From: a virus
Direction: 5' to 3' (one strand)
Length of the DNA: 64,000 nt
Virus record (IMG/VR): IMGVR_UViG_2922727739_000003
Coordinates: 25,210 to 89,209 of that record
The position numbers and the translations under genes were made by a program. Shown here piece by piece: positions 3,297 through 63,600 of this stretch (positions are counted from its first letter, which is position 1; each line of letters begins with the position of its first letter). The notes under the pieces were generated by a model that saw only the letters and a program-made list of their open reading frames with translations, was not told the DNA's origin and ran no database searches.

Positions 3297-3338
3297 TTAT
3301 TCTGCATAAAAGAACTGTTTTATCTAAAATGCTATGTA

Positions 3339-3793
3339 TTACTTCTCAATATGAAGCTTGAATATGTCGCCTTCTTCATTAAATTCTTTTATCTCAAATA
3401 CATAATCAAACTCATCTGCATCGCCAATATAAGAATGGTTGAAGTTATAAGCACTTACAATACTGCACTTTGGCATTTCATATTGTACTAGAATATCTTC
3501 TTGATTTTCTTGTTTTCTATAAAACCCTTCAGCTATAAGTTGACAACCCTACGATTAAAAACTATAGTTTCGCAATTTTGAGTTTTACTAAAGAACTTAT
3601 CATAATCTGACTTCGTGTCTTCCGATTTATTTAGAAACTTGAGCATGTCGCCATTCAACAGAGCGTCTCTAACTCTGATCGTTCTATTTACTACACTTAT
3701 GCTCCCCTTTTTTAAGGAACTAATAGTTGAAATAAAATTCCCAGCCTCATCAAACACATGTAGCTCAATAATATCTCTAACACCATAATTCAT
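3339..3793 (-). pseudogene. Frameshifted gene, possibly a tail-tube-like paralogue
   Basis: MNYGVRDII...DALLN...FNRR stops at 3533, but coding continues in another frame (CQLIAEGFYRKQENQEDILVQYEMPKC...FDYVFEI...HIEK*) to 3339. The 455 nt span is one base short of a multiple of 3. Confidence 0.5.
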
Positions 3794-6088: not shown

Positions 6089-6090
6089 TG

Positions 6091-11877: not shown

Positions 11878-14800
11878 TTATTGAATACTTATTTTGAATT
11901 TTTCAGGTAGTGTAATTTTAAGGTTATTGTCAATTGCTTTCATAAAGGTGTGGGTGAGATGCCTGTTCTCTTTTCCTGTCCGTTTGTTTATGACTTTGAT
12001 ACTTGCCATATCTAATCACTCCAGTTCAGGTTAGTTTATTCCTAAGTATTCCAACATTTCTTTCTTCTCTACCTCACTAAAATTCTTCCATGCAGCCTGT
12101 AACTCCAACTTAATACAGTTAAACTCACGCCAATTACCCTCGCTGTTTTTTGTGACAATCCCATACCCATTCAGCATTACATCTAAAGTTTCTATTCTAA
12201 TCACCTCCTTATTTTGATACGGACATTACATGTGGGATTCCTCGTTGCTTGTCCTTTATAAATACTTCATTCGTATCCAAGTTAACAATCTGATAATCTC
12301 TATACATATCCACGTACCACCACAACACATAAGAAACGTGTTCTAATGAACTCCATATAGTCGCTTTATTGGTAGTCTCAACGTCTTCATATGGATGATC
12401 AGTACCCGAATCTACATGTAAGAGATACTTATCTGTCGCCACATCTTGAATTACAAACCTGTAGTGTTTATCTGTCATTGCTGTTTCTCCTCTCTGAACG
12501 TAGTTAATCCTTAATAACATTTATGAATCTGAGTCCTAAAATAAAGTCTCCGTGATTAATATTGGTTTCAGTGGTTGTCCATTCTGTTTCATATCCATGC
12601 GCAATCAATATAGACTGAATTTCATTTATAAATTCTCCTTGTTCCTCTTGGTTGTACCGATAAAAATTCATTTAATTCCACCTTATAAAATAGTAGTTTT
12701 ACTCTGATTATTAACGCTTTTCCATCCGCTCTGCTGCTTCATCAATAAGTGCTTCGAATGATTGTTTAGTTGTTTTAGCCATTTTCATCCAACCTTCAAT
12801 CTCCCAAGGAGACATTTGAGTATTAGGATTTTGAAACCGAGAAGATAAGCCCTTAATCTCTTGTTGGAGATAATAAAAACGGGCGTAAAATCCTTCGTCT
12901 GTCTGGATGGGATGCTTCCGTGTATCTGGATCGTGATATACCGAATTAACGTCCGTCCAAAATTCTTCTCCATTATCTTCAACCAGAACCCTAAGACAAT
13001 CGTCCTTAACCTCCAATACTTTTGCTTGACTACCCTGATTATATTCGTTATCGCTACGAGCAATTTCTACATATGTATCTTTTAAGTATGAATAATCCTT
13101 TTGTTTATTTTTCATTTTGAGTCTCCCTTTATATATATTTCATAGGCAATATTTAGAGTAGTCATCTTTTAACACTTCATGAAAATCATTTTCTATCTTT
13201 TTAAGAATGTGAATCGTTTTAAGTGGAGCAGAGATGTAGTTAATCAATTTAACAATTTCATTAAGCCTTGCAGCCTGATGAATTTTCTTAATATATTCTC
13301 CGCTATCTAACTGCCTAGTTGCATTCTTTAAAATTGTGATTTGTTCGTTTGCTGCATCTATCTCACCTTTAGACAATTCAAAGTTTGAATCAGAATAATA
13401 ATCAAGAAAATAAGTAATCAACTCATCATGATAAATGTTAAATTCGTCACTCATCAATTTTAATAATACCTCTCGGGATTTTAAAAGAGATGCAGCCTTT
13501 AAAGGAAGATCGTCTTTTTCAAAGCTATTCAGTTTATCCGATATATACTCTCCTAGCTGTATTTCATAGATCATTTTAAATTCATCAAGTGAATAATCTT
13601 GATAGTAGTCCTTTATTGTTATAGTTCGATTTTTTTTATTATTAAAATCATAGGTGTATGAATAATCTAGAGATGGAATATTTGTTTTCATACTAATTTT
13701 TTTATTATCAGTTAACTCAACATTTACGTATGGCAATTACATCGCTCCTATTTATAAAATCTTGTTTTTACTTCCACACTCCTCAAAAGATACCCACTTT
13801 ATAATACTTATTTATTCTCCATTCCCCTTTAGAGATAAATTTTTTTACTGTTTCTACATTAACTTCATAGGTATCTAAAGTATCAACGTGTACAATAGAA
13901 TACTTATCTCCTAATTTAGTTGCATAATATTCAAATCCATTCTGATTTTTAAAATAAAATGAATCTTTTAGTTCAATTTCGTTCTTGGTATTATTTTTGT
14001 TTGTTAGCTCATCAAGCTCTTTAAGCAGAGAGTACATCGCTTTATCCTTCAAAGAAATCAATTCATTAATATATTCATCAGTGAACTCGTTTCTTCTCAT
14101 ATCTATTTGTTGCTTTAGGTAACTAATTCGTTTTTCTTTCTCTACTCGTTCTACATGACTCTTCGTGTCTACCTTGGACACAATCCATCTTGTAGGCTTA
14201 ACCCCCTGAATGGAATCCGTAATTCTCAGCACTCTACCTGTTTCATAGCCCTTTTGAGTGTCGCAAACAATCAAATCGTCTTTTTTCAAAACAAGATCAG
14301 TGTAGAATACGTATGGCGTTTGACTTCCGTTGTGTTTTACAATTGCAATTTTAGTCATATGTATTATTCTCCTTTTATCTGCTGTTTTTCTGAGACCAAT
14401 TCTTGTGTTCATCTTCTCTTATAGCAAAATAATTACCATCATGTTGAAAATATTTATAAGCAATAAGTTTATTAGCGGAGTTTTTTATATTCACTCTATC
14501 CCCCATAGTTACAGGAATCCATTGATACGGCTCATTAATTTCATCAAGCCAAAACAAGAAATTTTCCCATTCTAGCTTTGAGACAATTTGAAAGTTGTCC
14601 GCTTTAAACAAATTTCCCCCTCCTTGTAAAAGTATATTTTTATTAGCACTCTCTGCACGCTTCAATTCCATCTGAAAAAGCATCTTGCATCATTTCACAA
14701 ACCTTATCAGCAATTTCAAGAGAATCAAATTCCTGATCATAAGTCCAAAATGGATTATTAGCATCTCCATGTGAAATCCCAACTCTGAATTTTTGAGAAT

Positions 14801-15918
14801 CTAAATCGAGAAAAACTCCATAATATTCATTTTCGCCACTTCTTTTGTACATGCTCATTGTTCGTATGCTCCTTTCTATGTAAAACTCTTCTTTTACTTG
14901 AACTACAGAGTTATTACCTTCACTTCAATTTCAACTTCCTCGCCAGAATGACCAAAAATATCATTTGGGTAAACCCTGCATTTATTTGGATCACTTGAAA
15001 CAAACATCAGTTCATCGTCTTGTTCTGCGTATTCTCCCGATTGATAATCCATCCAGTTCTCTGGTTCTCTTCCAGTAATCAGTGTAAAAGTTTCCCTATC
15101 AACATCGAAGCAAAAAGACTCTCCATCACCAGAATTGACTGCTTTGAATTTAATTGTTTTCAATTGACGATCTCCTTAACTTTTGTTTAAAATTCAAATT
15201 TTACGAGCCATTAATCTTCCCCTATCTCTTCAAATTCAAGAACCAATCCATCACTATAGGGATTAAAGCCTATAATTTTCAAATCTGTTTCTTCTTTTAT
15301 ATTTACTAACTCAAGCTCATTGTCGCCATAATAATCATGATATTGATGTAGCATCTTAATTGCATCGCTTACTCTCATACTAATTCTCCAATCTCAATAG
15401 TTTAGTTGTGTTGGTCTCAAAGATATTCCACTTTCACCGTCATATTCTATTTTAAATGTATTGGTGCATCCTTCATTTCCTATGTAAAACCAGACATCCT
15501 CATCTCCATGATTCTTTTGAAGTTTTTTTAATTCTTTAATTAAGTGATTAAGATCCATTGGGCTACCTCCTTTTCTTTATATAAAATCCAACTTTTATAT
15601 GGTCACATTACAGGTTTGAGAGGTTGTTAGCTGTGTATGAAATTTCGATCAACCCCTACTATGTATCAATCATCATTTTAGTTTATAAAATACTTTTCTG
15701 GAGCACATCATGAATGAACTCGATTCAAACCCTGCATCATTTACTATAAATAACTCAGCTTCGCCTATGCTGCTAATGCTAGATTTCCACCTACCTAAAA
15801 CATATAATTCCCCCTCTGTTAAATCTAATCCCCCGCATAAATTCTTAGTGATAAAAACATGAGTTGCTACGCTTAAATCCTCTGTCGGCTCTAAGCTGGC
15901 AAGTTGATGACTAGACAT
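11878..15918 (-). other. Run of short hypothetical ORFs (11878-12009, 12031-12195, 12209-12520, 12711-13115, 13140-13736, 13783-14412, 14375-14683, 14643-14858, 14903-15163, 15394-15558, 15673-15918)
   Basis: ORF track plus manual translation of sub-60-aa ORFs with SD motifs. Confidence 0.65.
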
Positions 15919-15976: not shown

Positions 15977-16076
15977 CAGTTTTATTTCATTATTTACAGT
16001 TGTTTAAATGATCATGTTTCGATATATATAAAAGGGAGGTTTTTACGCCTCCATTTTGATAAAAACTATATTTTAC

Positions 16077-17114
16077 TCAAACTGGTACTTTGTATTTTTC
16101 TTCATTCATTAATGTTATAAAAAAATCTAACCCTTTATCTATTGGCGCATCTTTTTCTTCAAGTACGTCTCTATTTTTGTGTGCCAATATACAAAAAACG
16201 TTATCCCTTATAACAAATTTACTTGCTTCCTCTTTGATATCTTGAGCGCTTATGTTGTTGTCGAAGGCCAATATTATCTCTACACCTAAACGCTCAAGCT
16301 TTAACACCTGCGTTTTACTTAACTCATGTCCACCTACACTCACAGAATGCTTAATACCATAGCTCCATGCCTTCTGGACGCTCTTTTCAGCTTCCCATAC
16401 AATTACTTTGCCAGCCTTTTTGATGTAATCATAAGTCTTATCTAAACCGTATAGGATTTGACTCTTTGGAGTGGGTACAGGAAACCAATATTTAGATGTT
16501 TTTAATTTTTTATAATCAAGCGTAGTTCTTCCTTTCACTCCGACTAGCGCTCCCAGTTCATCTCTGATCGGTATTGTTATACAGTTATCTCTAAGAGAAT
16601 ATCCAACTTCAAATAATCTCTGTGCATCACAATCTATTCCTTCATCAAGAAATAGTTTATTAGGGAAAGCTATGTACGAATCTAGAATAGATTCATCTAC
16701 TTTTCTTAATGGTACTTCATCGTAGACCTCAGTCTTTGGTTCAATCAAATCCAAAAATTGAAGACACGGATCGATTTCTTCTTTTGTATGTTTGTAATCA
16801 GCGTAGTAACTATACCCACAAACCTCACATATATAATACATAGCCTTTGAAAACGAGATGTCTTTATAATGCTGAACAAGTGTTATGATATCAGGATGTC
16901 CGCTACCCAGCTTTGGAAGCGGATTTGTGTAGCAGTTTACAAGTAAAGTATCAGTGAAAACCTGAAGGCTAGAAGGATTATCTCCTCCTGGCCTTGTCGA
17001 TCTTATTTCCCCATAGCTAGACATCCTATCATTGATATGACAACCGAGAGATGTTAAAATATCTGCAACTTTATTGTCTCTTATAATGTTTTCTTTTAAA
17101 GTTTGAGCATCAAT
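16077..17114 (-). CDS. Phage DNA primase (TOPRIM, SPbeta YorJ-like); probable ATT start at 17114
   Basis: IPIRDELGALVGVKGR, LYGL, VWEAEKSV and LAFDN TOPRIM motifs; directly downstream of the helicase; 30-codon extension (IDAQTLKENII...SLGCH) behind SD GAGGTG. Confidence 0.85.
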   Translation of the reverse strand: MDAQTLKENIIRDNKVADILTSLGCHINDRMSSYGEIRSTRPGGDNPSSLQVFTDTLLVNCYTNPLPKLGSGHPDIITLVQHYKDISFSKAMYYICEVCGYSYYADYKHTKEEIDPCLQFLDLIEPKTEVYDEVPLRKVDESILDSYIAFPNKLFLDEGIDCDAQRLFEVGYSLRDNCITIPIRDELGALVGVKGRTTLDYKKLKTSKYWFPVPTPKSQILYGLDKTYDYIKKAGKVIVWEAEKSVQKAWSYGIKHSVSVGGHELSKTQVLKLERLGVEIILAFDNNISAQDIKEEASKFVIRDNVFCILAHKNRDVLEEKDAPIDKGLDFFITLMNEEKYKVPV

Positions 17115-17132
17115 TTTATATCACCTCTCAAG

Positions 17133-48727: not shown

Positions 48728-49141
48728 TTATTTTTTATTGTTTCTTAGTTTTTGCAGCATTTTTTTCACTGTCGCTAAATGTACCGCAGCTATCTCTACA
48801 AAGCTTTTTTTGTTTTTATCAAAGTATATCTCATAGACCTTTTCATCAATTTCATCAATCTTAGTAACGTCAGCCATGCTCCCTCTACCTACTCTTACGA
48901 AGCCTTCAATATTCTCAAATAAACGCATCGTCTGTTCCGTTCTTGTTTCATCGATATACTCGCCCATGTCTGTTATGTATACAATTCTTGTTTGCCCAGT
49001 TCTTCCACTTTTCTTTTCAGTTCTAAATCCTTGAATTTCAGATACTGGCAGCATAATTGCTACTTCGTCTATTTTGTCACCTATCTTTTTAACCACTTTT
49101 ATAGTATCCGTTGATTTCAATTTTTTCACCTCATAATTCAT
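48728..49141 (-). CDS. Stand-alone LytTR DNA-binding domain protein (no receiver domain); likely TTG start at 49120
   Basis: GFVRVGRGSMADVTKIDEID resembles the LytTR F.R.HRS.IVN...I motif; about 130 aa; last gene of the agr-like operon. Confidence 0.65.
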   Translation of the reverse strand: MNYEVKKLKSTDTIKVVKKIGDKIDEVAIMLPVSEIQGFRTEKKSGRTGQTRIVYITDMGEYIDETRTEQTMRLFENIEGFVRVGRGSMADVTKIDEIDEKVYEIYFDKNKKSFVEIAAVHLATVKKMLQKLRNNKK

Positions 49142-49184
49142 TTGGTGTCTCGCCTCCCAAAAGAAGAACGAGACACCAAATATC

Positions 49185-49307
49185 TTATTTCAATTCTTCT
49201 GGCACTGCTTCTCCATGGATCAACGTCCAACTAGCAGTGCTTACTACTGTTACAGCCAGCAGAGAGCAAAAACTACCAACAATCAGCATAAGTTTGTTCA
49301 ATTTCAT
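49185..49307 (-). CDS. agrD: AgrD-like cyclic-lactone autoinducing-peptide precursor (40 aa, absent from the ORF track)
   Basis: MKLNKLMLIVGSFCSLLAVTVVSTASWTLIHGEAVPEELK*: amphipathic leader, S-W-T-L-I-H core aligning with clostridial C-x4-H-Q-P, P-E-E-L-K tail; the ATG overlaps the agrB TGA (ATGA). Confidence 0.88.
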   Translation of the reverse strand: MKLNKLMLIVGSFCSLLAVTVVSTASWTLIHGEAVPEELK

Positions 49308-49840
49308 AACTTTTCACCTCCTCTCAAGCGTATCAAGAGGAGACTTTGTACTAGCGCTGCTAAATTCAAAACTGGAATATTAATCATATATATTAGCGTA
49401 ACTAATATTAAAGATATAATTTTAAACCATTTAAAATTTTCTGGTTTCACTCTTGTTTGCTGTTCGATTTTACTCGGTGCATACAACATTACAAGTATTA
49501 TACTCACTAGATACATAGTAAAAGAATAAGTCTCTAAATAATTGCCACACAATGCAATTAAAATTATAACAAGTGATGAAAAAACTATACACATTTCTGC
49601 TGATTTAAAATGAAACCCACCTGAAAACACTCTTACTGATGAAAAACCAATTAGTGCAAGTATTGCTTCTTTGGTAATCCCCAGCAACATCGATGCTATT
49701 AATACAATAAATATTGGTATTGTATTCGATATAATAAACTTAATTGTGTACCTTATTATTTGTTGTGATGGTAATTCATCAGGATATTTTCTTTTAGCTG
49801 CAATACTCCATTTATCAGCTAACTGATTAATCATATTCAT
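49304..49840 (-). CDS. agrB: AgrB-family peptide-processing membrane endopeptidase
   Basis: RVFSGGFHFKSAEMC carries His and Cys 7 residues apart, as in S. aureus AgrB H77/C84; LYAPS motif; multi-TM. Confidence 0.92.
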   Translation of the reverse strand: MNMINQLADKWSIAAKRKYPDELPSQQIIRYTIKFIISNTIPIFIVLIASMLLGITKEAILALIGFSSVRVFSGGFHFKSAEMCIVFSSLVIILIALCGNYLETYSFTMYLVSIILVMLYAPSKIEQQTRVKPENFKWFKIISLILVTLIYMINIPVLNLAALVQSLLLIRLRGGEKL

Positions 49841-50468
49841 TTTTAATTTCCTTTCTTCTTTCTATAAGTATCAGTGAAACAAATATTATTATCCAAAAAA
49901 CTACGCTAATGGTCATATTATCGAAAGTTGGCTTTGTCATTACAGACACTCCGATCAGAGAAATAATGAATAATACAACATTAGAGAAATTAATTTTGAA
50001 TTTCAAAGTATATTGATATGGCAATGTTGTAAAGAAAACAGATCGTTTTCTTAATGCAAGACTTATTAAGATCATTATTGTGTCACCTAAAAATTGAATC
50101 AACATTCCATAATCTTTTGTTGTGGTAAAAAAATCAATATTAAGTGTACTTGCAAGCACAAGCGCCGTTAATGTTTGTAAAATCATCTGCACTAAAAAAC
50201 TGATTCCCGATATTCTCAATGACGAAAGGGGAGATAGTTTAAACAAAATTACGAGAAATATTATCAATAATAACAAATTAGCAATAGGCGCAATTCTATT
50301 CGGTAGGTCGTATTCCACATATAGGAAGGTGCCTACAGAAATACACAGACTTGAAACAATAAACTGAATCCAGTAATCCCTAAGTTTTATAGAATACATA
50401 CCAAATCCAAAAATAAAAATTGCCAAACCATCCAACATTGAAAATATTATGTATTTAGCTGTCTCCAT
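49827..50468 (-). CDS. Multi-TM protein resembling an AgrC sensor domain, with no histidine-kinase domain
   Basis: About 213 aa from ATG 50468 (SD GAGG); 6-7 hydrophobic segments; ends RRKEIKNEYD with no H-box or HATPase domain; overlaps the agrB start. Confidence 0.6.
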   Translation of the reverse strand: METAKYIIFSMLDGLAIFIFGFGMYSIKLRDYWIQFIVSSLCISVGTFLYVEYDLPNRIAPIANLLLLIIFLVILFKLSPLSSLRISGISFLVQMILQTLTALVLASTLNIDFFTTTKDYGMLIQFLGDTIMILISLALRKRSVFFTTLPYQYTLKFKINFSNVVLFIISLIGVSVMTKPTFDNMTISVVFWIIIFVSLILIERRKEIKNEYD

Positions 50469-50515
50469 GTTCGCCCTCACGTTCTTATAATTGAATATAA
50501 TGAATTTGTACACTA

Positions 50516-50544
50516 AATATATCATCTGTAATTATTTATGTCAA
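50516..50544 (-). promoter_or_regulatory. SigA-type promoter of the agr-like operon
   Basis: TTGACA-17 bp-TATATT directly after the mrpR-like terminator. Confidence 0.8.
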
Positions 50545-50557
50545 CACAATTTTCCAT

Positions 50558-50592
50558 AAAAAAAAGTAGAATAAGAAAAACTTATTCTACTT
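50558..50592 (-). terminator. Intrinsic terminator at the end of the MrpR-like gene
   Basis: 12-bp stem aagtagaataag/cttattctactt with a long U-tract on the minus strand; overlaps the stop codon. Confidence 0.85.
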
Positions 50593-51556
50593 CATAAATT
50601 CTTTTTATGGTCTCAACATTAAGGAAATCTTGAGTATACATTGTGCTGTTGATTATGCCACCATCACGCAATCCAACATTAAATTGCTTACATATCTTAT
50701 GGATATCTGAACGATCTAAAGTTCTTTTATTTTGATCAAAGTATGCTTTTCTTGCCATTTCTAACATGCCTGAGTTTCTTATATCAATTGGAGTTAAGTT
50801 TGGTTTGTTTAATTTTTCACCAAATTTGGTAATAACGAATGTTATTAACGATTGTTTAACTTCCTCTCCTCTTGTGCTCTTTATTATATAATCATTATCT
50901 TTCAATTTAGAAGTATCTTTTCGTAGGCTACCTTCACCAAAATTAGATTTATATACCTCTTCTTGATCTGCTGCTAAAAGAGCTTTGATCAAAAAATCAC
51001 TAACAATGATCTCTCTTTCTGTTGTTTCATAGCGACCTACATTAGTCAGTTTTATTTTATTATGCTCTTTATCAATATTCTCCACTTTTAAAGTTCTTAT
51101 CTCAGAACTATTCCTACCTAATATACCTTCAAATATTGATAGTATTATTGCTATATCCCTATAGCTATCTAACTCTGATAAGGCATCTTCTAAGTGATCT
51201 TTTCGTATTAATGTTTGCTGTGGTACAAATTTTTCAAAGTCGTCTTTCCCTTTCATTGCAGCAAGTGGATTCATTTTATCTTTCCTAAGACCTTCACCAC
51301 TTGCCCACTCAACATATTTTCTGAGAATTGACCCATAGTTCATTGCACTACTTAACTTAGTGGGAGCCAAGAGGTAAATAACCTCTTCAAATTCACTTAA
51401 TGTAAAATCATAAAGATCTTTACCTAATCTCATTTCTACTCTACTTGCGCGCTTTAGCTTTCCTTCGTAGTTCTTACGAGTGTTTTCTCTAAATTCGCTT
51501 AAAAATCTTTTTTTGATCTCTGGATTATATAGGCTATCCCCATATATATTATTCAA
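50582..51556 (-). CDS. mrpR: MrpR/YopR(SroF)-like master repressor with tyrosine-recombinase fold
   Basis: 324 aa; YNPEIKKRFL...KDLYDFTLSEFEE, EGILGRNSSEIRTLK and LTPIDIRNSGM (degenerate R..HxxR motifs); directly downstream of a YopQ-like gene, as in SPbeta. Confidence 0.75.
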   Translation of the reverse strand: MNNIYGDSLYNPEIKKRFLSEFRENTRKNYEGKLKRASRVEMRLGKDLYDFTLSEFEEVIYLLAPTKLSSAMNYGSILRKYVEWASGEGLRKDKMNPLAAMKGKDDFEKFVPQQTLIRKDHLEDALSELDSYRDIAIILSIFEGILGRNSSEIRTLKVENIDKEHNKIKLTNVGRYETTEREIIVSDFLIKALLAADQEEVYKSNFGEGSLRKDTSKLKDNDYIIKSTRGEEVKQSLITFVITKFGEKLNKPNLTPIDIRNSGMLEMARKAYFDQNKRTLDRSDIHKICKQFNVGLRDGGIINSTMYTQDFLNVETIKRIYEVE

Positions 51557-51560
51557 TTTG

Positions 51561-52895
51561 TTACACCTCTTTGATTATATTTTCGAAATGTTTTAGTATG
51601 TCCACTTGAATGCGAGTAGACGAATAAGCCCTTTTAGCCTCTAATAAATCTATCAGTGTTTTATCGTTACTTAAATCAAGATCATCAATTATTTTATTTA
51701 ACTCCTTAGGACTGATATTTTGATTATCTTTTTGATACATTTTATAAGCGATCACTGTGTATCCCAAAAACATTAAAGGGTGATTTATATAGCTCTTATC
51801 ATACTTTTCTCTATTTTCCAAAAAAGCATCCACATATAGGCTTATCAAAATACCAAAATATTTCACAAGATAGTGTGATACATTTTGATAATCAAGATAC
51901 GTCTGAGGATTAAACGTTCTTTCAATTGCTAAATTTAAGATACTGAATGTTGTTAATTGTCCCACAGCAGTATTTGGCTTAGTTGCAGAGGCAATTCGAA
52001 TACCTTTAAGTTCGCTGTCCTGGTTGGTTTGTAATTCTTTTACGACAGATGCAGATCGCTCAGTAGAAGAAAGTTCTTTCTTTCTGTCTTTATTTAGAAT
52101 GTTAATTGTATTTATCTGACCAAAAAATTTAGAGGCGGTTTGCTGATCATAAGTTCTAATCGATAGTTCAAAATTGAAATCCAAATCATTTTTCTCATTC
52201 ATTGCTTTGACAGTAGCCTGCAAACGGTGAAAACCATCCAATATACTTATAGTAGCATCTTTGTTTATAATTAATTGTCCAAACTCGTCTTCTTTCGGAA
52301 TCCAAGTTACAGGTTCTGATTCAAAGTTATAAACGTTAAATCTTATGGTATCAGTTAAATAATCATTCGCAACAAGTTTATTAGCAATGGTTCTCACAGA
52401 AGATTGATTTACAATAGGCGTTTCAATAATTCCATCGTTGCGATTGCCTTTATATTTTAATCCTCTTTGAGATCTTGGATCGTATATTATCATCTGCGAT
52501 TCGAACATCTTGTTTAAAAGTTTGGCTGATATCTTTGATGAATATGCTTTTTCGTCAATTTGTATTGCATTAAAAGTCAAAGGTAAACTAATTGTTTCAC
52601 TAACAAATTCTATGGCTATACTTTCTTTGGCTTCTCTAATTTCAGTCGCTGTAAAATGTTCGAGTGGATCTATACCACCAAAAACACTATTTATGCAGTC
52701 AGTAAAGACACATAATAAGGGTAGGCTAATCTCTTCAATACTTTTCTTTTTTAAAACAATCTCGTTTAATGTTCCGTAAGGAACTCCTAGTGAGTTTAAT
52801 CTATCATTTACACTGAGTATCTTTTTTCTATTTGTCTTATGTTCGTCAAGTATTTCAGTAATTATCTTTTCAACTTCTCTACGATCAGTTTTCAA
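51561..52895 (-). CDS. YopQ(SroE)-like DGQHR/DndB-related protein
   Basis: ILDGFHRL motif, 444 aa, synteny with the MrpR-like gene. Confidence 0.7.
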   Translation of the reverse strand: MKTDRREVEKIITEILDEHKTNRKKILSVNDRLNSLGVPYGTLNEIVLKKKSIEEISLPLLCVFTDCINSVFGGIDPLEHFTATEIREAKESIAIEFVSETISLPLTFNAIQIDEKAYSSKISAKLLNKMFESQMIIYDPRSQRGLKYKGNRNDGIIETPIVNQSSVRTIANKLVANDYLTDTIRFNVYNFESEPVTWIPKEDEFGQLIINKDATISILDGFHRLQATVKAMNEKNDLDFNFELSIRTYDQQTASKFFGQINTINILNKDRKKELSSTERSASVVKELQTNQDSELKGIRIASATKPNTAVGQLTTFSILNLAIERTFNPQTYLDYQNVSHYLVKYFGILISLYVDAFLENREKYDKSYINHPLMFLGYTVIAYKMYQKDNQNISPKELNKIIDDLDLSNDKTLIDLLEAKRAYSSTRIQVDILKHFENIIKEV

Positions 52896-52953
52896 ATGTG
52901 ATACACTCCTTTATTAAAGAATTATAACACATAAATATAATAAATATACACGA

Positions 52954-53736
52954 TCATTTTTTCCTAAGTTTATCTAACAAATTGTGATTATTACCCTCCA
53001 AAACCAGAACTTTAGTCACATCTTTTAAGTCTTTTGTATTCATTAATTCGATTTTATTTAGAATTTCATTCTTTATTTTATTCTCACAAGTGATGCAGAA
53101 TTTCTTCCCTTCAATAAAAGGAAACTGCGAATAACATCTTTCGTATTCACATACTTTTTCCCCAACTTTCTTTGGGGAAAATTCTGCCTTTTTCATCGCT
53201 TCAGTCCAACTCAATCCTTTATTGTTCATTGCACTAGAAGATGGTTTGAGTTTCAAACTATCATATTCTACTTTTGTTGGAATGTAACCTATTTTTTTTA
53301 TGGAATTTTTTAAATCAACAATCATCGATTCAACGCTTGTATATTTGTTTTTCAAATTCACTTCAGCAGCTTTACATATTTTCTCTATTCCAAAGCGATC
53401 AGATATATAGTCCCAAACAGGCTCAAAATTACCAGCTTCATAATCCATTTTATCTACATATCCGTTTAATACGTTTAATAATTTGAAATTGCTGATTGCT
53501 TTAATTCTGTTTTTTTCTAATAAGTATTCTTCTTTTGTTGGAATACCAGCTTTTTTCAAGAAATCTTTAAAATTTGTTTTTGCTTTCCTATTGTAGGTAT
53601 CCCATGTAGTAGTTTTTTCTTTGTCTCTATAAAAATCAAAGAGTTCTACTGTGAGGTATCCTCCTGCTTGCTTGGCCGCCAACTTAGCTTCATCTATATA
53701 CTTATTTTCAAGTTCCATATTCATATTACAATTCAC
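52954..53736 (-). CDS. Protein with homing-endonuclease-associated-type repeats and a C-terminal Cys cluster
   Basis: Repeated IPTKEEY / IPTKVEY...W.EA...A units; CEYERC and FCITC. Confidence 0.45.
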   Translation of the reverse strand: MNCNMNMELENKYIDEAKLAAKQAGGYLTVELFDFYRDKEKTTTWDTYNRKAKTNFKDFLKKAGIPTKEEYLLEKNRIKAISNFKLLNVLNGYVDKMDYEAGNFEPVWDYISDRFGIEKICKAAEVNLKNKYTSVESMIVDLKNSIKKIGYIPTKVEYDSLKLKPSSSAMNNKGLSWTEAMKKAEFSPKKVGEKVCEYERCYSQFPFIEGKKFCITCENKIKNEILNKIELMNTKDLKDVTKVLVLEGNNHNLLDKLRKK

Positions 53737-54275
53737 CTCTCAACAAAGTACCTGTTGGTCATATACCAAGCCTTACCCTTCTCAATATCAACCATACCCT
53801 TCTTGCTATCCAAGAATACAATATCCCCACACTCTTTGCAGCCCCATTTATTCCTCTTGTACGCTGACTCCTCTATATATGAGGCTCCACATTTACATTC
53901 TACCTGAATCAATACCTTGTGCTGGCTATACGCATCTGCTAATTGCTCTTTACTCTTACTCGCTACTGTTGGTTGCTGTATTGCTGCTACATATTCCCTT
54001 TGCTCTGAAAATTCATTATGTACTTTAAAATCTGCTACAAGCTCAGGATTTAATCCAAAGTATTCTTTACCTACTGTGGTTACATATTTACTACCTACAC
54101 GATAAGATTCTATCCAGTCCTGTATTTGTTTGATGGATAGGTTTACACTTCCTTTAATACCGCTATTTAGCGTGTAAGTCATAACAAAGTAAAGATCAGT
54201 TCTCATAATGCACCCCCATCTAAATATACTATAAGCGATAATTATTATCAAAGAGTAAAAAAATAAGCGTAGCAT
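53733..54275 (-). CDS. Hypothetical Zn-ribbon protein
   Basis: CKCG...CKECG; likely start MRTDLY. Confidence 0.55.
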   Translation of the reverse strand: MLRLFFYSLIIIIAYSIFRWGCIMRTDLYFVMTYTLNSGIKGSVNLSIKQIQDWIESYRVGSKYVTTVGKEYFGLNPELVADFKVHNEFSEQREYVAAIQQPTVASKSKEQLADAYSQHKVLIQVECKCGASYIEESAYKRNKWGCKECGDIVFLDSKKGMVDIEKGKAWYMTNRYFVER

Positions 54276-54317
54276 ATACTATGCTCGCTTTTCAGCAGAT
54301 CATTATTTACTCTTCGG

Positions 54318-54923
54318 TTACACTTTTGTTAATAAAATATCTTTCTCAAACTCATTAACAATAATCATAAGTCTTATGAGATTCTTATTCTTCTCTTCTT
54401 TGTATTTCTTTATATGTAATTTTATCGCTGCTAAAGCTAAATTGAAATACTCTTTGCCATAATCATTATGAATATTCAATAAATAATATTTTGTTGCGTC
54501 TGCGGTAATCTTGCTCCTATATCCTTCACCCTTCATCATAGAACAAAAATCAGAAATGTGAGATAGAGCTGTTCCTCTGTGCATTCCTGACAATAGTGAA
54601 ATGGAATTTAACGCAGAACTAAGATCTATCTCATTATGATAGAACTTTCTAGAATATTCGTAAGCGGTCTCAATCATTAGTCTTGTTATTATTTTTCCCA
54701 TTATTTTATATCACTCCTCATTGTTGTGTTCTTCTATCCATTTGGCTATATCTAGGTTGGTTTTAACAACTTTATTTTTCTTTGTGTCCCATATGCGGAA
54801 ACCGTTTGCCATAAAGTTATTTAAATCGTTCGCTTCTTCTGCTTCAATATTTACAAATTTCCATGTCTTCAGGTTATGCTCTTTATCATAGGCTGCTAAT
54901 TTCATTAAACTATATCTTTTCAT
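54318..54923 (-). other. Two hypothetical ORFs (54318-54701, 54711-54923) heading the operon that leads to the yopQ/mrpR-like genes
   Basis: ORF track, SD motifs. Confidence 0.6.
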
Positions 54924-55043
54924 AGTAATATGTCCTCTAAAGTTGTATTTTTTACTGTTATTTCATCAAACAATCTGCTAGAATAAAATGACAAATACAC
55001 CCTTCGCCCAAAATCATAAGGAGTGTATTTGTCTTGTTGTGTA

Positions 55044-55102
55044 GTGACACGAAATTCGTATCACCTGAGTTATATTATAGGGTTTATCCAATTTCGTGTC
55101 AA
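55044..55102 (-). promoter_or_regulatory. Consensus SigA promoter with overlapping operator-like inverted repeats
   Basis: TTGACA (55097-55102)-17 bp-TATAAT (55074-55079); 21-bp near-palindrome GTGACACGAAATTCGTATCAC (55044-55064); half-site ATTTCGTGTCA over the -35. Confidence 0.8.
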
Positions 55103-55133
55103 CCCCTATTTGTAATTAATGGAGGAAATGTGT

Positions 55134-55343
55134 ATGTCTCGGGTTGACATCAATCTTAAAGCTATACTTAATAAATTCGAAATAAGCGAAAGGGAAATTT
55201 CTAGAAGAACAGGTATCAGACAGGCTACAATCAATAACATGTGCAATAATGATGTTAAGCAAATTTCTTTAAAAAATATTTCTCTCTTGTGTGATGAACT
55301 AGGAATTGATATTTCAGAGTTGCTTACTTTAAATAGAAAATAA
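55134..55343 (+). CDS. XRE/Cro-family HTH transcription regulator
   Basis: ISEREISRRTGIRQATINNMCN...ISELL; divergent from the promoter above. Confidence 0.88.
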   Translation: MSRVDINLKAILNKFEISEREISRRTGIRQATINNMCNNDVKQISLKNISLLCDELGIDISELLTLNRK

Positions 55344-55364
55344 AAGAAGGATATCCCTTCTTTT
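55342..55364. terminator. Bidirectional terminator between convergent xre and mazF
   Basis: aaaagaagg-atatc-ccttctttt. Confidence 0.75.
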
Positions 55365-55382
55365 ATTTCACTCTCATCCTAC

Positions 55383-55763
55383 TTAGTTGATCCCCGCTAC
55401 TACTTTATATGTACTGTTCAAACTTGGTTCATATTCATGTGGAATACTTGCAACCTTACATGCCAAATCTTTTTTGTCTAAAACTCTCATCTGTTCAAAC
55501 AATGCAACTGAATGTCTATCGAATCCACATTTATCTTTGTCTAAAAGTACATGAGTTGGAAGATTTGCTTTTTGAGTCTGTGCGGATAAAGGGACTACCA
55601 TAACTACTGGAGAATATTTATTTCCAATATTGTTACTCATAACAATTACAGGTCTCTGTCCCTTTTGAATGTTTGTTTTTACTCCATTAGTTTCTCCTAG
55701 GTTTGCAATCCACACATCCATTTTTTTAATTTCTCTCGTTACACTTTCTACTGCTACCGCCAT
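55383..55763 (-). CDS. mazF: MazF/PemK (EndoA-like) mRNA interferase, no adjacent antitoxin
   Basis: QKGQRPVIVMSNNIGNKYSP...PLSAQ...KANLPTHV...FEQMRVLDK aligns with B. subtilis EndoA; catalytic Arg kept, catalytic Thr replaced by Ser. Confidence 0.9.
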   Translation of the reverse strand: MAVAVESVTREIKKMDVWIANLGETNGVKTNIQKGQRPVIVMSNNIGNKYSPVVMVVPLSAQTQKANLPTHVLLDKDKCGFDRHSVALFEQMRVLDKKDLACKVASIPHEYEPSLNSTYKVVAGIN

Positions 55764-55934
55764 TATGTACACGCTCCTTTTAATTGAAACTTGTTTATGT
55801 TGTTCTTATCGCTATCTTCGTATTATTCCTATTATATATAATTACAAATTCTACTTTTAACTCTAACTATGTTTCTCATTTATTTACTCTCTATATTGGT
55901 AATTATACAAATAAAAATAATAAAATACAATACG

Positions 55935-55946
55935 GAACGTTTGTTC
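55935..55946. promoter_or_regulatory. LexA/DinR (SOS) box between divergent mazF and rsfA-like genes
   Basis: GAAC-GTTT-GTTC, identical to the box at 26822. Confidence 0.75.
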
Positions 55947-56052
55947 TGTCAAGAAATTTAAACACCATGTATATATTCAGTCTTTTACTGCATAAATAAC
56001 TTGACATCTGGATATACATAGAAATAAGGAATATTTATTGGGAGGAATAGAG

Positions 56053-56568
56053 ATGCGACAAGACGCTTGGACTCAGCCTGAGGATGATCTACTAGCCAAA
56101 ATAGTGATAGCCAATATACGCAGCAACAAAACCCAGCTAACCGCATTTCAGGAGGTTGGGAGAGAACTAAATCGTACAGCGGCAGCATGTGGTTTTCGCT
56201 GGAACAGTGCTTTGAGACATAACTATAGGAATGAGATAAAAGCAGCTAAAGAAGAAAGAATGAATAATAAGACAAATACAAAAATAAGAAATACAAATAC
56301 CAACACTGCTATGAAGGCAGACATAAATTATATGACAGAAATAGATAAAGCAATCGACGCACTAAATAACTTGCGATTGGAATTTCTAAATATGCAGGAA
56401 ACAATTCGAATACAAACAAATAAAATAAATGAGTTGAAAATCGAAATTAGTGATGGCAGGAAAGAAAGACCTATCGCTAGCGAGGATTTAGACACATTAC
56501 TTAAGATATTACACAGAGCCGATCAAATACAAAAAAACATGTCTCAATACAAAGAACCTGCCATGTAA
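56053..56568 (+). CDS. rsfA: RsfA-family (Myb-like) transcription regulator
   Basis: RQDAWTQPEDDLLA...TQLTAFQEVGRELNRTAAACGFRWNS is the RsfA N-terminal signature; followed by a terminator hairpin. Confidence 0.85.
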   Translation: MRQDAWTQPEDDLLAKIVIANIRSNKTQLTAFQEVGRELNRTAAACGFRWNSALRHNYRNEIKAAKEERMNNKTNTKIRNTNTNTAMKADINYMTEIDKAIDALNNLRLEFLNMQETIRIQTNKINELKIEISDGRKERPIASEDLDTLLKILHRADQIQKNMSQYKEPAM

Positions 56569-57299
56569 ATTGGCAGGCTTTTTTATAAAAATTATATTTT
56601 ACTCACAATAAAAAACTTTGCGGTGAGGTTATTTAACCGCATCGCTCAGAGGTTGATTCAGCAGATCAATCAGCAATTCGCTTGCCTTCAACCCTTCCCC
56701 AATACCAATTAGATATACAGCCTTCCTAAGTACTTCTCTTGCCTTTTCGTCCACTATTGCTGCTTCCCCTTACTTGTATGTATTTTATCCATTGCACTCA
56801 TGGAGGATGTGCTTAACGTGTTCCAACACATCCTCTAGTTTCTTGCCACACTTATCACAATACACCTTTTAACTCACCTCTTAATTGCTTTACACTGTCA
56901 CATCTAAATTATCTTCTATATACTTTTGTCTTTTTATATATTCTACATGCTTCTTATGTTGTTTCTTTTTCTCTTCATCCCAAGGCTCATACTCTAGAAT
57001 ATTTTCAGACATATACAATCTCACTACTAATTTTCCATTTACCATTCTTTCTACTGCATATTTATCTTTGATGTCACAATAACCTTTTATCCATCCAATA
57101 CTAGCACCTCTTAACCATATGCGTTGGTTATAGCTCCATTTATTTTGTTTAGATTTTAAGTTATCTATTAGTCTATTTGATACCAACCCATTTTTCTCCC
57201 TTCCGCTTAAGATATAAAGATCAAGAGAGTATCACCAATTGCGTATCGTTATGTCTAAGTTGTTCTTTGCATTTATATAGGACTGATAAAACATGCCTT

Positions 57300-58449: not shown

Positions 58450-58926
58450 ATGAATACCTCTTTCCTTAAAATATTTTCAAGGTAAAACAGTCATTTCATT
58501 TTGATTTATCCTCGTTTTTATACTGATACTCATCTAGTGCTTTGTTAATTGTTCTTTGTCTGTGTTTTTTCACTAGATGTTCTTTATATAAAAATGTGAG
58601 GGGAACAATGATAACACCTACAACAATTATCCCGATTGCATATTGTATTAACATTTATCTTTGCTCCCTTCTCATAAAATAGTTATTTTATCTTAAAGAG
58701 ATCAATCATATTTTAACATTGTTGATCTCTTAAAAGTATTTTAATCTTCTTTTAGTTCACTTTAATCCCTTCAATCAGCACTCGGATTTCTTCGATTAGA
58801 ATTAGTATGCATCTGGTTAATATTATGTATTTGATCATCTATGTTGTAGGATGCATAGTTGTTCTCTTTCTCTCTTCTTGAAAAAAACACAGTCTGATAA
58901 ATAGGATGTGCCTTGTAAATTCTTAA

Positions 58927-59787
58927 CTAAAAAAATTTAAATTCTTGATCTTTACTAATTCCATTGAGAACTCTATTTTCTAAAATGGAGATGATACCAT
59001 TGTCAATTTCATCGTCAAACTTTCTAGCAAAAAAAGCATCTGTTGAATTTAGATGTGGTAAATATGCTTCTGTTAGAATATCGGGTCTGTAGAAACCTTC
59101 ATTAGTTACCTTCATATTGAGAAATCTATAGTTATTGTTTCTTATTTGTTTTTCTATGTCTGAATTAAGTAACACGGTTGGAAAGTAGGACTCATCCGAC
59201 ATTAATGATACCCTAAAATAATCCTGCAACTGATACGCCATTGGAGAATCAACAGAATATTGAGCTGCTTGTCTGCTTAATATTTTCCACTGTGAAGCTC
59301 TGTATGGTTCAATCTCAGGAAGAAAATAATCCGTAAATGGTTCTCTATCTCCAAGTACTTTAATTTGTCCACAGTCCTCAACATAATATTTTCCAGTGTA
59401 CGCTTTATTTAAATGAAAATCTTGATGATAATCTAAATAACTTATATTAAAGTCAATTCGCTGTTGAATTTCCTCTTGATTAATCAAGGGAAAGTCTTGA
59501 CCACTCAAATTAATATAATGTGTCCATCCAGGATCTTTGAGCAACACTCTGATTGCATCGATCTCTACCTGAACCAACGACCAGCCTCCCCAAATTAACG
59601 GTCTAGAGGGTAAAGTATAAACATTAGACCAGTTAGATGAAATCAATTTCATGATTTCAAACATTTCGTCCTTTGCTTTTAAATCTACATGTATTAAATA
59701 TATATTTTCAGGTGAATGTATAGCTCGCAGTAATCGAATCAGCTGATTTGGTTTGTGATGAGCTAAGATAAAATAAGCAATTTTCAT
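58927..59787 (-). CDS. GT14-family (Core-2/I-branching, beta-1,6-GlcNAc transferase-like) glycosyltransferase
   Basis: IAYFILAH, IHVD, WGGWSLV, YINLSGQDFPL, SQW, SDESYF and FFARKFD motifs. Confidence 0.88.
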   Translation of the reverse strand: MKIAYFILAHHKPNQLIRLLRAIHSPENIYLIHVDLKAKDEMFEIMKLISSNWSNVYTLPSRPLIWGGWSLVQVEIDAIRVLLKDPGWTHYINLSGQDFPLINQEEIQQRIDFNISYLDYHQDFHLNKAYTGKYYVEDCGQIKVLGDREPFTDYFLPEIEPYRASQWKILSRQAAQYSVDSPMAYQLQDYFRVSLMSDESYFPTVLLNSDIEKQIRNNNYRFLNMKVTNEGFYRPDILTEAYLPHLNSTDAFFARKFDDEIDNGIISILENRVLNGISKDQEFKFF

Positions 59788-60645
59788 GAACTCACTCTTT
59801 CCTTTTAATAAAATAAACCTTTTACTACTACAACATTATATATTGATTACCATCATCCATAAAAGCCACTAGTAACGAATTCTTTTTCACAGTCTTGGAT
59901 TGAAAGGCAACAATGCGTGATACCTCTACTTTCATTTCCTTGTTGCTTGCTTCATCATAAACCAAAATAATTTCTGATTCTGACTCATTTTCTATCACCT
60001 CATAGCTTTAATCTTCTAACTCTACAATACTATGTTGCTAATTTGGTTACAATAAATTTCCTTTTCAATAAATAAATTATAACATGACTAAATGAATTAA
60101 ACAATATATTTCATTATTTTAGTTTATTAAAAACAACTACTTTACAGCAGTCTTTAAATGTATTTATGTATGTTTCAAATTTCTATGCTGTTCATATTGT
60201 TTCGCTGCCTCATGTAATTCAATCCACTTACCCTCATAATTTCTAACATACAGCTTATTGTCTTTTAATGCTCCAGCTTTAAACATAATGATACTCACTC
60301 CCCGTTAAAGAGCTATAGATGTTTACATTAACAGAAAGACCACTCCAATGATAGAAACGATCAATTAACACATAACTCATAGCCTCTCTGGAGCGTCCAG
60401 CGGTCTCGATTTCTTCTTTTACTTTTCCGTCTACGACTATCATATATGTATCCATTTTAAATACTCCTTTTAATTATATTTATTTTTTAATCGAACAAAG
60501 GTACTACTTGTTCAGTTGCTTCTTTAATATCTTCAGCATCATGCCAACTTTCAAACTTGACAGCTAGATCAATGTCGTGCGTATATAGTTGACCGCGCTG
60601 TTCTTCCCAATCTGCTCCTCCGTTGTTATATGAATTTTAATAATT

Positions 60646-63600
60646 TTAGTAGTGTATTCCTGTGATAAAGCCAAATGCGAATGCTATCACAGTAGTTATT
60701 GCTACATAGACACTCCAAAAAATATGCTGTTTTTTATTCATGCTAATTCTCCTAAAAGACTGACTTATTTTATAAGAACCACTCTTAATGTTAGGAAATA
60801 ACGAACTTTTCAAAGTCAAAAATAAATGACTCCATTTTTTTCTTATTGAATTGATAAAGCTTATGTCCATCTAATGTTGGCTTATCTATACAAATTGTGT
60901 TTTTTCCGATACGAAGATAGCCATTAGTGTCAAGTTCTTTGTCATAATATTCGTAATAGTCTGATCCTAAACTGTCAGCTTCCTTGGGAGATAAATTAGA
61001 CCAAACTTCATTTGCAATCATTTTAATGTAGTTATACAACTCTACGAAATCCCTAAGTTCAAAATTATATGTAACATTATATTTATTATTTATTTGGTTT
61101 TGATTCATTTCAAATATCACTGCTGATTTTCGATGTTTAACAATTAACTCTGTCCCGTTAGAACATGTAAAAACCCTAGTCTTCATATTCTTCGCTCCTT
61201 CTTACTTGATTACATTCCAGTATTTGCATATCATACAAATAGATTAGTATAATTAAATTAATCTTAAATTGAGAAAGGAAAATAAGAATGGTACTAAAAA
61301 TCAAAAATTTGGGTTATGGATTAAGCGCATTATCCTTCGTTTATGCTATTTATGCTTACTTCATCAAACATCTGCTAAGGGTTACTCCAGATACACGAGA
61401 ATTTATGGGTTCTCAGATAAGCAATTCGCTTAATAAAGATTTAGTTCAAGCATTAAATGACTACACTGTATCTATTCCATTTGCTTTTATTTTCTTAGTA
61501 ATTGGTATAGCAATTATTTTTGCTAATAAATACTTTGATTAAGTTGCGACTTTTGGTCGCTTTTTTTTTGTTATCAAATACTTCATTTATCAAAATCATC
61601 AATCATTGACCTTATTGTTTTCAGTTGCTTCGCTTGAGCTTCATTCACTTTTAATTGATGCTCAAATGCACTTTTATACTCCTTAACTTCTTTAAGGCTC
61701 CTTCTCACCAGTTCACGCAAATTTGCCTTGTTGTACTTTTCCTCCAACAATTTATCATCTAATTTCTCTGGACTTAACAGCACCAACTCTTTTGTGTCAT
61801 CAATAATTTTATCCATTGGTGTTCCTCTCCTCTATTTCTTAATAAAAGAATCCTTTTATACAGATTCACTATTTAGTTTCATGTCCATTCTTAACATATT
61901 GAAAATTGCTGAATCGAATTTTTCATTATTGTACTTACGGCAGAAACCAAGTAACAAAGCCTCATCAAATGTCATTCTTGATTCATTGAAAAATTTACCG
62001 TTAACTACGGGATAGAACGTTGTTTCCTTTGTTTTGTTTAGTCTTACTTCTGCTTCTACAATGGCTAGATCATCACAAATGATTGTTGTTTTAACTACTC
62101 TTCGATAATCTTGTTCAACTAGCTTTTCAATTACTTCTTCTTTCTCTCTCTGTTCCAGCCAAGACTTAGCCATTCCATAAATTCGAGCCAATTGAAAGTT
62201 CCCTGTCTCTTTTTTTGACAACTCAGAAAAGAATTTCGGTATTTCTTTGAATTCTAGATCCTTTAACATAAATCCGACACTCCCCATAAAATAATCTTTT
62301 TATCTGAAACGAACCTCATCACTGCTGATTCGTTGTGTCACCTTATATGACTTTAATTCGCCTACATCTTTTTTTGATGCCCATTGAACATATCCGCTGG
62401 GAGTAATGTACGCAAAAGTGTGAATATTATCGCTGATTACTGGCAATTGAAATTCACCATGATATAGTGGATAGGTAATGTATTCATTAATAAGAAAATC
62501 GAAATTGTATTTCTCTATGTAATCGAATTTTTCAATGGTTGGAATAAATACGAACCATTTCATTCTGTCAATCGATTGAGACTGAATAGACATCTCTACA
62601 CCATCATTGAGAATGTATGGCACATTGTCTACTTCTCCTGTTACTTGCATTGTAGTTACAATTCTAATTTTATAATCCACTTGACTTCACTCCTTATAAA
62701 ATATTCATTTTAAGTTGCTTTCGATATATTTTTTATACTTTACATCTAAATCTTTAAAAAAAGATTCGTCATTATTCGCATTGAACATAAATGTAATTCG
62801 AGACTTCTTATTATTTCTTTTATAATTCACATACACCCATTTATTAAGTGGCACTAGCTCATAGCCGGTTATTTCTTCAAATCCTACTTGATCACCTTCA
62901 TAGCAGACATATGTACTGCCTACGTGCACCTTTTTGTTGTCCCAAAGAAGATGGTCGCCCTTTTCTATACCATAGTAGTATCTCCAAAATTTCTGAGTTA
63001 AAAAGATAGAACAAGCAATTACACTACCTAGTATTAATGGTGCAAACAGTCCAGCATCTGGAAACGCCAAGAAACCTAAAAAACATAATGGAGCAGCCAT
63101 AACAATGGTAGCACAACCCGGACTAAATTTAGAATTATTCCACAGCCTCACTTGAATTCTCCTTTTAGTTTTGCAGTTATATACTTGCTAATCAAAGGAT
63201 CATTTTATTTTCCTTAGACTCAATTCAATCTTCAGCAAAGCACAAACTTCATCAAGACTGACAAAACCTCATTTAGATGCATTCCTATTCATATCTGTAA
63301 GCAAATTCTTTGTTTCCTCTTCAACTTGTTGCATGTAAAGATCAAAGTTCCCTTGCAATTCTGTCCGAATAGTTTCTTTAGTAAGATTAGGATATTTCTT
63401 CTCATCAATCTCGAAGGTAATTGACAATTTCACTTTCATAATAATCGACTCCTTTGTTTTATAAGTTATTTCGTCACTTGTAATAAAAATATAGTTTTAC
63501 GCAGTTCGTTTTAAAGCAATATTCATGACAACCATTGCACCTTCATTTTCACGCAATGCAGCAAATTTGGCCATTTCTATTTTATCATCGAACGAATATA

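Follow-up and report, generated by a model that had tools for sequence, protein, structure and literature searches.

Phage genomes are mosaic, and by the prevailing view their joints come from illegitimate recombination at random, with selection acting afterwards. 'Linker' sequences were reportedly predicted by Botstein's modular theory of phage evolution, and dedicated linker sites have, to our knowledge, rarely been found. Tyrosine recombinases require the 6-8 bp that separate the two cleavage points to be the same in both partners; heterospecific lox and FRT sites with matching centres recombine and those with unlike centres do not, which is the basis of laboratory cassette exchange. Cluster A mycobacteriophages carry stoperators, 13-bp asymmetric repressor sites that vary little in sequence and follow the direction of transcription. 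The known systems closest to the one described here are the dif modules of Acinetobacter plasmids, which lie between pdif (XerC/XerD) sites (PMC6449649), and the promoter/stem-loop motifs (PeSL) of T4-type phages (PMC2839356, PMC4122927). Here we analysed a 64,000-nucleotide stretch of viral DNA (hereafter the window), which comprises bases 25210-89209 of the 164,715-bp record IMGVR_UViG_2922727739_000003 (G000), classed as a provirus in IMG/VR and, by its sequence, a Paenibacillus member of the wider SPbeta-like group. The window carries an array of the palindrome TAAAA-N6-TTTTA at its gene junctions, and position-specific, order-preserving centres set these palindromes apart from both pdif/dif modules and PeSL. 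We consider it an evenly balanced proposition that the sites are the crossover joints of a site-specific recombination system that exchanges single genes or small groups of genes without a change of order.

An initial annotation, made from the letters alone, had counted at least 31 perfect copies in the window where 1-2 were expected by chance. Dinucleotide shuffling bore this out, with 33 perfect copies versus 1.06 ± 1.10 in the shuffles (maximum 6). The exactly 6-bp spacer also held, because arms spaced by 6 bp gave 33 copies and each other spacing from 0 to 14 gave 0-3. The annotation's figure of about 17 one-mismatch copies agrees with the excess over expectation (38 in the window versus 20.5 ± 4.8), so about 18 of these are real. 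The sites are as follows.

3307-63499, no strand assigned (genes on the minus strand): junction-site array of 33 perfect and 16 near-perfect copies; core T-R/A-AAA, 6 variable bases, TTT-Y/T-A.
Perfect copies, start positions: 3307, 5014, 7995, 8663, 9949, 12686, 13755, 13955, 14627, 14881, 15188, 15582, 16060, 21041, 24269, 26146, 27939, 30494, 34349, 36205, 36832, 38049, 41036, 43572, 47953, 56586, 57287, 58675, 59809, 61843, 62287, 62697, 63484.
Near copies (one change at the variable arm position), start positions: 7175, 11122, 18542, 20730, 22054, 25110, 25731, 31851, 37220, 40807, 41794, 45148, 57685, 58483, 60457, 63192.

The whole record contains 55 perfect copies, 50 in the minus-strand arm and 5 in the other. 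Its genes lie nearly all on the minus strand to ~102 kb and on the plus strand beyond, the latter region probably being the structural arm. The position of the sites at gene junctions, often on a stop codon, was recovered genome-wide: of the 55 perfect copies, 46 fall largely outside called genes, 13 start with the three letters of the upstream gene's stop codon, and 31 sit 5-45 nt ahead of a called start (lower bounds, the gene caller being crude). Typically, a site follows a stop codon and precedes the next ribosome-binding site. Site-to-site units consist of a ribosome-binding site, open reading frames (ORFs) and a stop, and 38 of 58 contain 1-3 genes.

Read on the coding strand, the symmetry reaches outward, with the left arm preceded by a purine and the right arm followed by a pyrimidine; this flank composition agrees with the extension to RTAAAA-N6-TTTTAY proposed initially. 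Further out, a T/pyrimidine pair stands 6 and 5 bases before the left arm and a mirrored purine/A pair follows the right arm. The site is clearer in SPbeta and phi3T (TYTnnA-TAAAA-N6-TTTTA-TnnARA, with the outermost A in 97% of copies), and the full site reads as a 28-bp palindrome of 11+6+11 bp with an Xer/dif-type layout, clearest in SPbeta. The first base of the centre is rarely A and the last rarely T, which leaves an A-run of exactly four bases. The left arm is more constant than the right, probably because it is often also a stop codon. In the sister clade (whole contig G004, loci L041-L049; also L019, G006 and G008), the arms are relaxed to T-A/G-AAA and TTT-T/C-A in all four combinations; TAA and TGA, the two forms of the left arm, are both stop codons and fit this A/G variation, which may explain the purine limit at the second arm position. 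The combinations of T-R-AAA with TTT-Y-A in G004 (A..T 11, G..C 8, G..T 17, A..C 11) are those of two arms that vary independently, and the sites read as two half-sites. Inverted arms (5 bp invariant) around an exactly 6-bp centre agree with the tyrosine-recombinase site layout that had been suggested for them. A promoter reading was tried and rejected: no conserved promoter-like (-35/-10) positions were found within 50 nt of the sites, and any start positioned by a site would fall inside the next gene.

We further searched related phages for the motif. The strict form occurs 34 times in SPbeta (2 for a reversed-pattern control), 30 times in Geobacillus virus E3 (control 7) and 30 times in phi3T (control 2), and when A/G is allowed at the second arm position, the count is 47-67 in seven Paenibacillus relatives versus 1-7 for the control. 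Across the 10 related phage records tested, the range was 30-67 copies each versus 1-7. A host chromosome (Paenibacillus, 7.2 Mb) showed no enrichment (118 motif versus 128 control matches), and at least a dozen of the matches listed there fall within ~40 kb around its prophage. The motif characterises the phage group and reflects neither AT-richness nor the host. It has no annotation in the SPbeta record, whose two 'palindrome' features are other sequences, and our literature searches (motif, yomM/yopP, phage cassette exchange) found no description of it in SPbeta-like phages.

The centres were then compared between G000 and three close relatives (whole contigs G001, G002 and G003), with sites paired by projection from the flanking alignments and the centre never used for pairing. 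Identical centres were found at 61 of 68 matched sites, pooled over relatives of shared ancestry, where ~27 were predicted from the 84-86% flank identity (per-genome binomial P = 1e-5, 3e-6 and 5e-9). As a control, 6-mers taken at ten further offsets of the homologous flanks were identical in 21-42% of pairs versus 90% for the centre, and per-base identity was 0.72-0.75 in the flanks and 0.97-1.00 over exactly the 16 bp. For 41 of the 49 array sites, the centre is common to at least one of the three relatives, in collinear order. No centre is repeated among the 87 sites in G000 (null 4.2, P = 0.008), and palindromic centres numbered 1 versus ~10 expected over seven partly related genomes. The centres are asymmetric, as in tyrosine-recombinase sites, where the asymmetry gives the site its direction, and partners would presumably have to match. 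One site serves as an example.

24269-24284, minus strand: site with the sense-strand centre TATGAC; the matching place in G001, G002, G003 and G004 has the identical centre.

G004 and G000 have twelve centres in common, 11 of them in order, although the arms have changed at those junctions. Between G000 and SPbeta we found no common centres beyond chance, so the centres are lineage-specific. SPbeta and phi3T have 17 of 17 centres identical (14.8 expected) and, being 95-97% alike, are too similar a pair to test centre conservation.

Alignments between the relatives place the joints of exchanged DNA at the sites. Where homology extends on one side only, be it upstream or downstream, the 16 bp remain common to both, and identity on the other side drops to a random 0.25-0.33 within a few bases of the motif edge. 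Alignment starts pile up at site offset 0 (24 of 116) and alignment ends at offset 16 (17 of 116), with several more ends just beyond, while a random intergenic position would qualify as a flush boundary 7% of the time. By this comparative evidence, recombinant joints lie within the site, with homology starting or ending flush with the 16 bp. Common centres could be chained into strictly collinear series of 47-56 per genome pair. Each pair has 18-19 units that lie between the same two centres without detectable DNA homology, often at very different lengths, and 42 of 55 units without DNA homology also lack protein similarity. Some units contain distant functional counterparts, such as a reductase at 32% identity in the same slot. 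The unit ending at site 3307 contains the anaerobic ribonucleotide reductase NrdD (ATP-cone and glycyl-radical domains; window 1101-3296, minus strand), whose slot in G001 and G003 has a homologue with a ~32% identical protein, so that a counterpart appears to have been swapped within one slot.

Contigs of three further assemblies have joints within a few bases of sites 9949, 13755/13955, 14627, 15582, 24269 and 26146. In IMG/VR contigs, one downstream gene is joined through the centre TATGAC to three unrelated upstream flanks, and two further phages have other downstream genes at this centre. Four places illustrate the pattern.

13755-13970, minus strand: smallest unit, its two sites separated by 184 nt; precisely this stretch is skipped or replaced in contigs from two independent assemblies (joint 13773 to 13950).
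14627-15597, minus strand: four-site stretch whose content is replaced in a relative; contig X7 exits at 14643 and re-enters at 15567, with 1047 other letters between.
26146-26161, minus strand: site where homology blocks of several relatives start or stop; an X3 piece starts at 26145 and an X7 piece ends at 26152.
58483-59824, minus strand: three consecutive sites around two fully replaced units, with the same flanking centres and no DNA or protein similarity.

Both centres of the smallest unit are kept in G001 and G002. The exit point of X7 is one base past site 14627-14642, and slots 14881/15188 and 14627/14881 resemble those of G002 and G003 in neither DNA nor protein. An L010 alignment ends on the last base of the site matching 26146-26161. 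Unit 58675-59809 measures 1118 nt here versus 347 (G001), 250 (G002) and 550 nt (G003), and unit 58483-58675 measures 176 nt here versus 171 (G001), 712 (G002) and 190 nt (G003). The initial suggestion that each unit is mobile is thus supported as mobility between phages, with units exchanged exactly at the sites among relatives. Homologous DNA keeps its slot in 146 of 150 alignments, so that exchange is allelic and order-preserving, not an integron-style capture and shuffling.

These properties can be set against those of the known systems. Like pdif/dif modules, the array has many 28-bp 11+6+11 sites in accessory regions of a mobile replicon, flanking small adaptive modules that occur in different backbones. 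The pdif arms are unlike (XerC versus XerD sides) and the host Xer proteins are used, whereas the arms of the phage sites are alike and the replicon is a phage, with no enrichment of the motif in the host chromosome. Moreover, pdif modules move between locations, whereas the phage units stay in their slot; a position-specific centre in fixed order belongs to the phage sites and is not described for pdif. Like PeSL, the palindromes are repeated intergenic motifs that border small accessory ORFs of variable regions and mark the end points of insertions, deletions and replacements between related phages. PeSL are longer promoter-terminator composites, alike everywhere, which recombine by homology, including within a genome, whereas the phage sites have no conserved promoter-like positions within 50 nt, an unstable stem and a different centre at every position. 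With heterospecific lox and FRT sites the array has in common identical arms around different centres (6-8 bp in lox/FRT) and a swap without deletion or inversion. Those sites are engineered, with 13-bp arms and a known enzyme, whereas the phage array is natural, has ~50-90 sites per genome and has a candidate enzyme only.

We also advance a more specific proposal, tentatively and with somewhat less than even confidence: the array may be a natural counterpart of recombinase-mediated cassette exchange, in which 50-90 heterospecific sites, read by a YopP-family Xer-like recombinase, permit a slot-for-slot trade. Under site-specific recombination in general, a recombinase dimer would occupy the arms and strand exchange would take place across the 6-bp centre, which would have to match between partners, as with lox, FRT or dif. 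A site would pair only with the same junction of another phage, and two crossovers would swap the intervening unit of ribosome-binding site, ORFs and stop, leaving it correctly placed in the long operon. Sites with different centres within one genome would not pair, and the genome would thereby be protected from deletions. A swapped-in unit would be expressed, each unit having its own ribosome-binding site immediately behind one site and its stop codon at, or shortly ahead of, the following one.

A search elsewhere in the genome for an intact tyrosine recombinase, as the initial annotation had advised, was successful. Besides MrpR, two tyrosine recombinases are encoded in G000, both outside the window (20-45 kb away), while a 599-aa serine recombinase at ~3 kb is the presumed integrase. 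When aligned to XerD and XerA, the YopP-like protein (369 aa, ~109.4-110.5 kb, minus strand) shows the complete R-K-H-R-H-Y set, and its gene is present in all complete motif-bearing genomes tested; yopP has been reported as a core gene of the SPbeta group that is transcribed in lysogens and has no known function. The YomM orthologue (333 aa) is Xer-like, is 58% identical to SPbeta YomM over its full length and has Lys at the second Arg. In G006, which has 50 sites, we found only a 31% YomM relative and no clear orthologue, so YomM does not track the motif cleanly. The distribution of strict (A only) and relaxed (A/G) arms against recombinase divergence gives a hint toward YopP over YomM, in few genomes. 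We therefore favour a YopP-family Xer-like tyrosine recombinase as the candidate catalyst, a link that we infer, with YomM or host Xer proteins as possible candidates.

The YomM gene (G000 133-134 kb, L057:1057-2058) lies within the structural arm in both phages, and its product has His-x-x-Lys in place of His-x-x-Arg. Its 58% identity to the SPbeta protein makes it a strongly conserved recombinase-like protein, whereas the window helicase is <60% identical to every match in the phage collection (best 41% protein identity, Geobacillus virus E3, the nearest named phage). Two ORFs of 260 and 180 aa occupy window 52954-54275 (minus strand), upstream of yopQ/mrpR, where SPbeta has yopP/yopO; a six-frame Pfam search found no integrase domain in that interval, and the YopP-like gene of this phage is ~33 kb away.

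Several observations weigh against crossover by a dedicated recombinase. In this clade each arm has just 5-6 strongly fixed bases, a short stretch for a recombinase arm. A comparison of gene-replacement boundaries with site positions in relatives, of the kind that the initial annotation had proposed, showed boundaries clustered at the sites, flush with the 16-bp edges, whereas ~70% of alignment ends lie elsewhere. The evidence for exchange is comparative and comes from assembled contigs, in which circles, hybrid junctions and exchange events are not directly observable, and G001, G002 and G003 share ancestry, so that counts pooled over them are not independent. YomM and SPbeta YopP have Lys for the second catalytic Arg, all tested genomes carry both sites and YopP, which makes their co-occurrence weak evidence, and the link of any recombinase to the sites is itself inferential. 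The upkeep of the centres would require selection on exchangeability at the level of the cassette or unit or of the lineage, which is indirect. Furthermore, phi3T is without yoqH-yoqI, and the ends of this segment in SPbeta are two sites with different centres (L003:37599-38415, SPbeta 87599-88415, versus phi3T 80190, L065); the phi3T joint combines the first SPbeta site's left flank and left arm with the second site's centre. Exchange between unlike centres thus happens at least rarely, and either centre identity is not absolute or there is a second pathway. In another comparison of the two phages, L003:49498-49513 (SPbeta 99498) and phi3T 89340 (L065) have the same centre and ~9 flanking bases in inverted orientation between otherwise unrelated flanks, which may be an inverted module or a chance match.

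The main rival, which we regard as unlikely though well worth weighing, is that the sites are bound by a dimeric protein with another main role (regulation, roadblock or genome architecture) and that exchange proceeds by short-homology recombination of RecA or Sak4 type, taking place at the sites because these 16-28 bp are the only sequence common to unrelated neighbours. Such an account explains the joints, and explains the conservation, uniqueness and asymmetry of the centres less well. An identity of 16 bp is very short for exchange by RecA or an annealing protein, the boundaries are flush with the 16 bp and not spread over a longer identity, and a centre-blind binder leaves the position-conserved, unique and almost never palindromic centres unexplained. 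Independent half-sites at one-turn spacing are typical of dimeric binders, and a Sak4-type protein, whose SPbeta counterpart yorG is annotated as a Sak4-like single-stranded DNA annealing protein, is encoded in the window.

45177-46322, minus strand: AAA_24 (Sak4-type) protein, by Pfam; candidate annealing protein for such short-homology exchange.

Repeated regulatory motifs can mediate modular exchange, as the PeSL motifs of T4-type phages show (PMC2839356), and in the laboratory phi3T x SPbeta hybrids of Dragos et al., 15 of 16 joints lie in homologous regions, the one non-homologous joint 'following yosA'. A palindrome copy at L004:16415-16430 (SPbeta 116415, at the end of yorZ and near yosA) is close to this joint, the coordinate match being approximate. 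Alternatively, the palindromes could be pure operators or roadblocks of a repressor that silences accessory operons, with the coincidence with exchange as a by-product of their junction position, which we consider improbable. Like stoperators, they occur in tens of short copies in short gaps along phage operons, here between stop codon and ribosome-binding site along long operons, without enrichment in the host chromosome. Stoperators, unlike the palindromes, lack a variable centre, and no link between them and exchange boundaries has been reported; random intergenic breakpoints would hit a site ~7% of the time and would not be flush, operators give no reason for conserved or unique centres, and the sole mapped SPbeta repressor does not bind these sites. 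That repressor, MrpR, was the operator-binding candidate of the initial annotation, and its homologue lies in the window.

50582-51556, minus strand: MrpR-like repressor gene, tyrosine-recombinase fold (Pfam MrpR_N_CB and MrpR_C_cat).

MrpR, a protein of tyrosine-recombinase fold, binds a repeated element in the same phage group, and ChAP-seq in SPbeta located it at ~10 promoter regions with the 15-bp SPBRE, a proven repressor site (PMC10516654). The core that we derived from the SPbeta sequence in 9 of 10 MrpR-bound regions, AATATGTATA, is unrelated to the palindrome, all ~10 peaks are SPBRE and the SPbeta palindromes number 34; since the SPBRE sequence differs, we regard the palindrome as an MrpR operator with next to no confidence and drop that earlier suggestion. 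We give equally little credence to an RNA hairpin or processing signal in polycistronic transcripts, also raised initially. The position of the sites between cistrons and their inverted-repeat form would suit such a signal, whereas a 5-bp stem forced around a 6-nt loop comes to +1.4 kcal/mol on average, there is no covariation between the arms (unpaired A..C, at 11, is as common as the paired forms), the one-mismatch variants in G000 do not favour G-U-compatible changes, Rfam gave no match, and SPbeta copies also lie between divergent and convergent genes. With arms that vary independently and an unstable forced stem, the palindrome is not an RNA hairpin. An integron-like array, in which cassettes are excised as circles, captured at any site and shuffled in order, was the leading idea of the initial annotation and is, in our view, very improbable. 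The array resembles integrons in its promoterless ORF units bounded by predicted tyrosine-recombinase sites. Integron attC sites are long imperfect palindromes that act as folded single strands, and cassettes are captured at one attI and can be reordered; the phage sites are 16-28 bp and not attC-like, no integrase-attI-promoter platform was seen beside the array, the recombinase genes lie 20-45 kb outside the window, centres are specific to their position, and the slot is kept in the 146 of 150 alignments noted above.

Across this whole phage group, one defined short site accounts for a large share of the joints. If exchange by site-specific recombination is true, the sites would be the 'linker' sequences of the modular theory, accessory genes could still be traded between phages whose divergence is too great for homologous recombination, and a position-specific centre would explain why gene order is kept despite turnover of content. 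Such exchange would also assign a role to the core gene yopP, to yomM or to both, explain the spread of anti-defence and other accessory genes, and supply natural orthogonal recombination sites. The group includes SPbeta and phi3T of Bacillus subtilis, which makes the idea testable by existing genetics.

Two blocks of the window had initially been described as free of sites. Perfect copies are indeed absent from 16075-21041 and 47968-56586, whereas a near-copy stands at a junction within the replication block (18542).

16077-20134, minus strand: replication block with a Toprim primase-like protein, a DnaB-like helicase and an ATP-dependent ligase (Pfam); without a perfect site and 86-92% homologous in close relatives.
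47968-56586, minus strand: lysogeny block of 8.6 kb, site-free; the sole stretch of >3.5 kb without any site.
51561-52895, minus strand: YopQ-like gene (DndB family, Pfam DndB), adjoining mrpR.

The lysogeny block is inherited as a single unit between its two flanking centres (100% covered in G002). Across the window, Pfam identified an anaerobic ribonucleotide reductase, a RecJ-like exonuclease, a primase-like protein, a DnaB-like helicase, an ATP-dependent ligase, a Ser/Thr kinase, a Sak4-type AAA_24 protein, the MrpR homologue and the DndB-like YopQ homologue. A megablast of 8 kb of the window against the phage collection gave no match, and the window helicase has matches at 85-96% identity in prophages of Paenibacillus genomes and at up to 98% among IMG/VR contigs. 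Within the accessory region, window 31917-33455 (minus strand) encodes a 512-aa protein with a eukaryotic-type Ser/Thr protein kinase domain.

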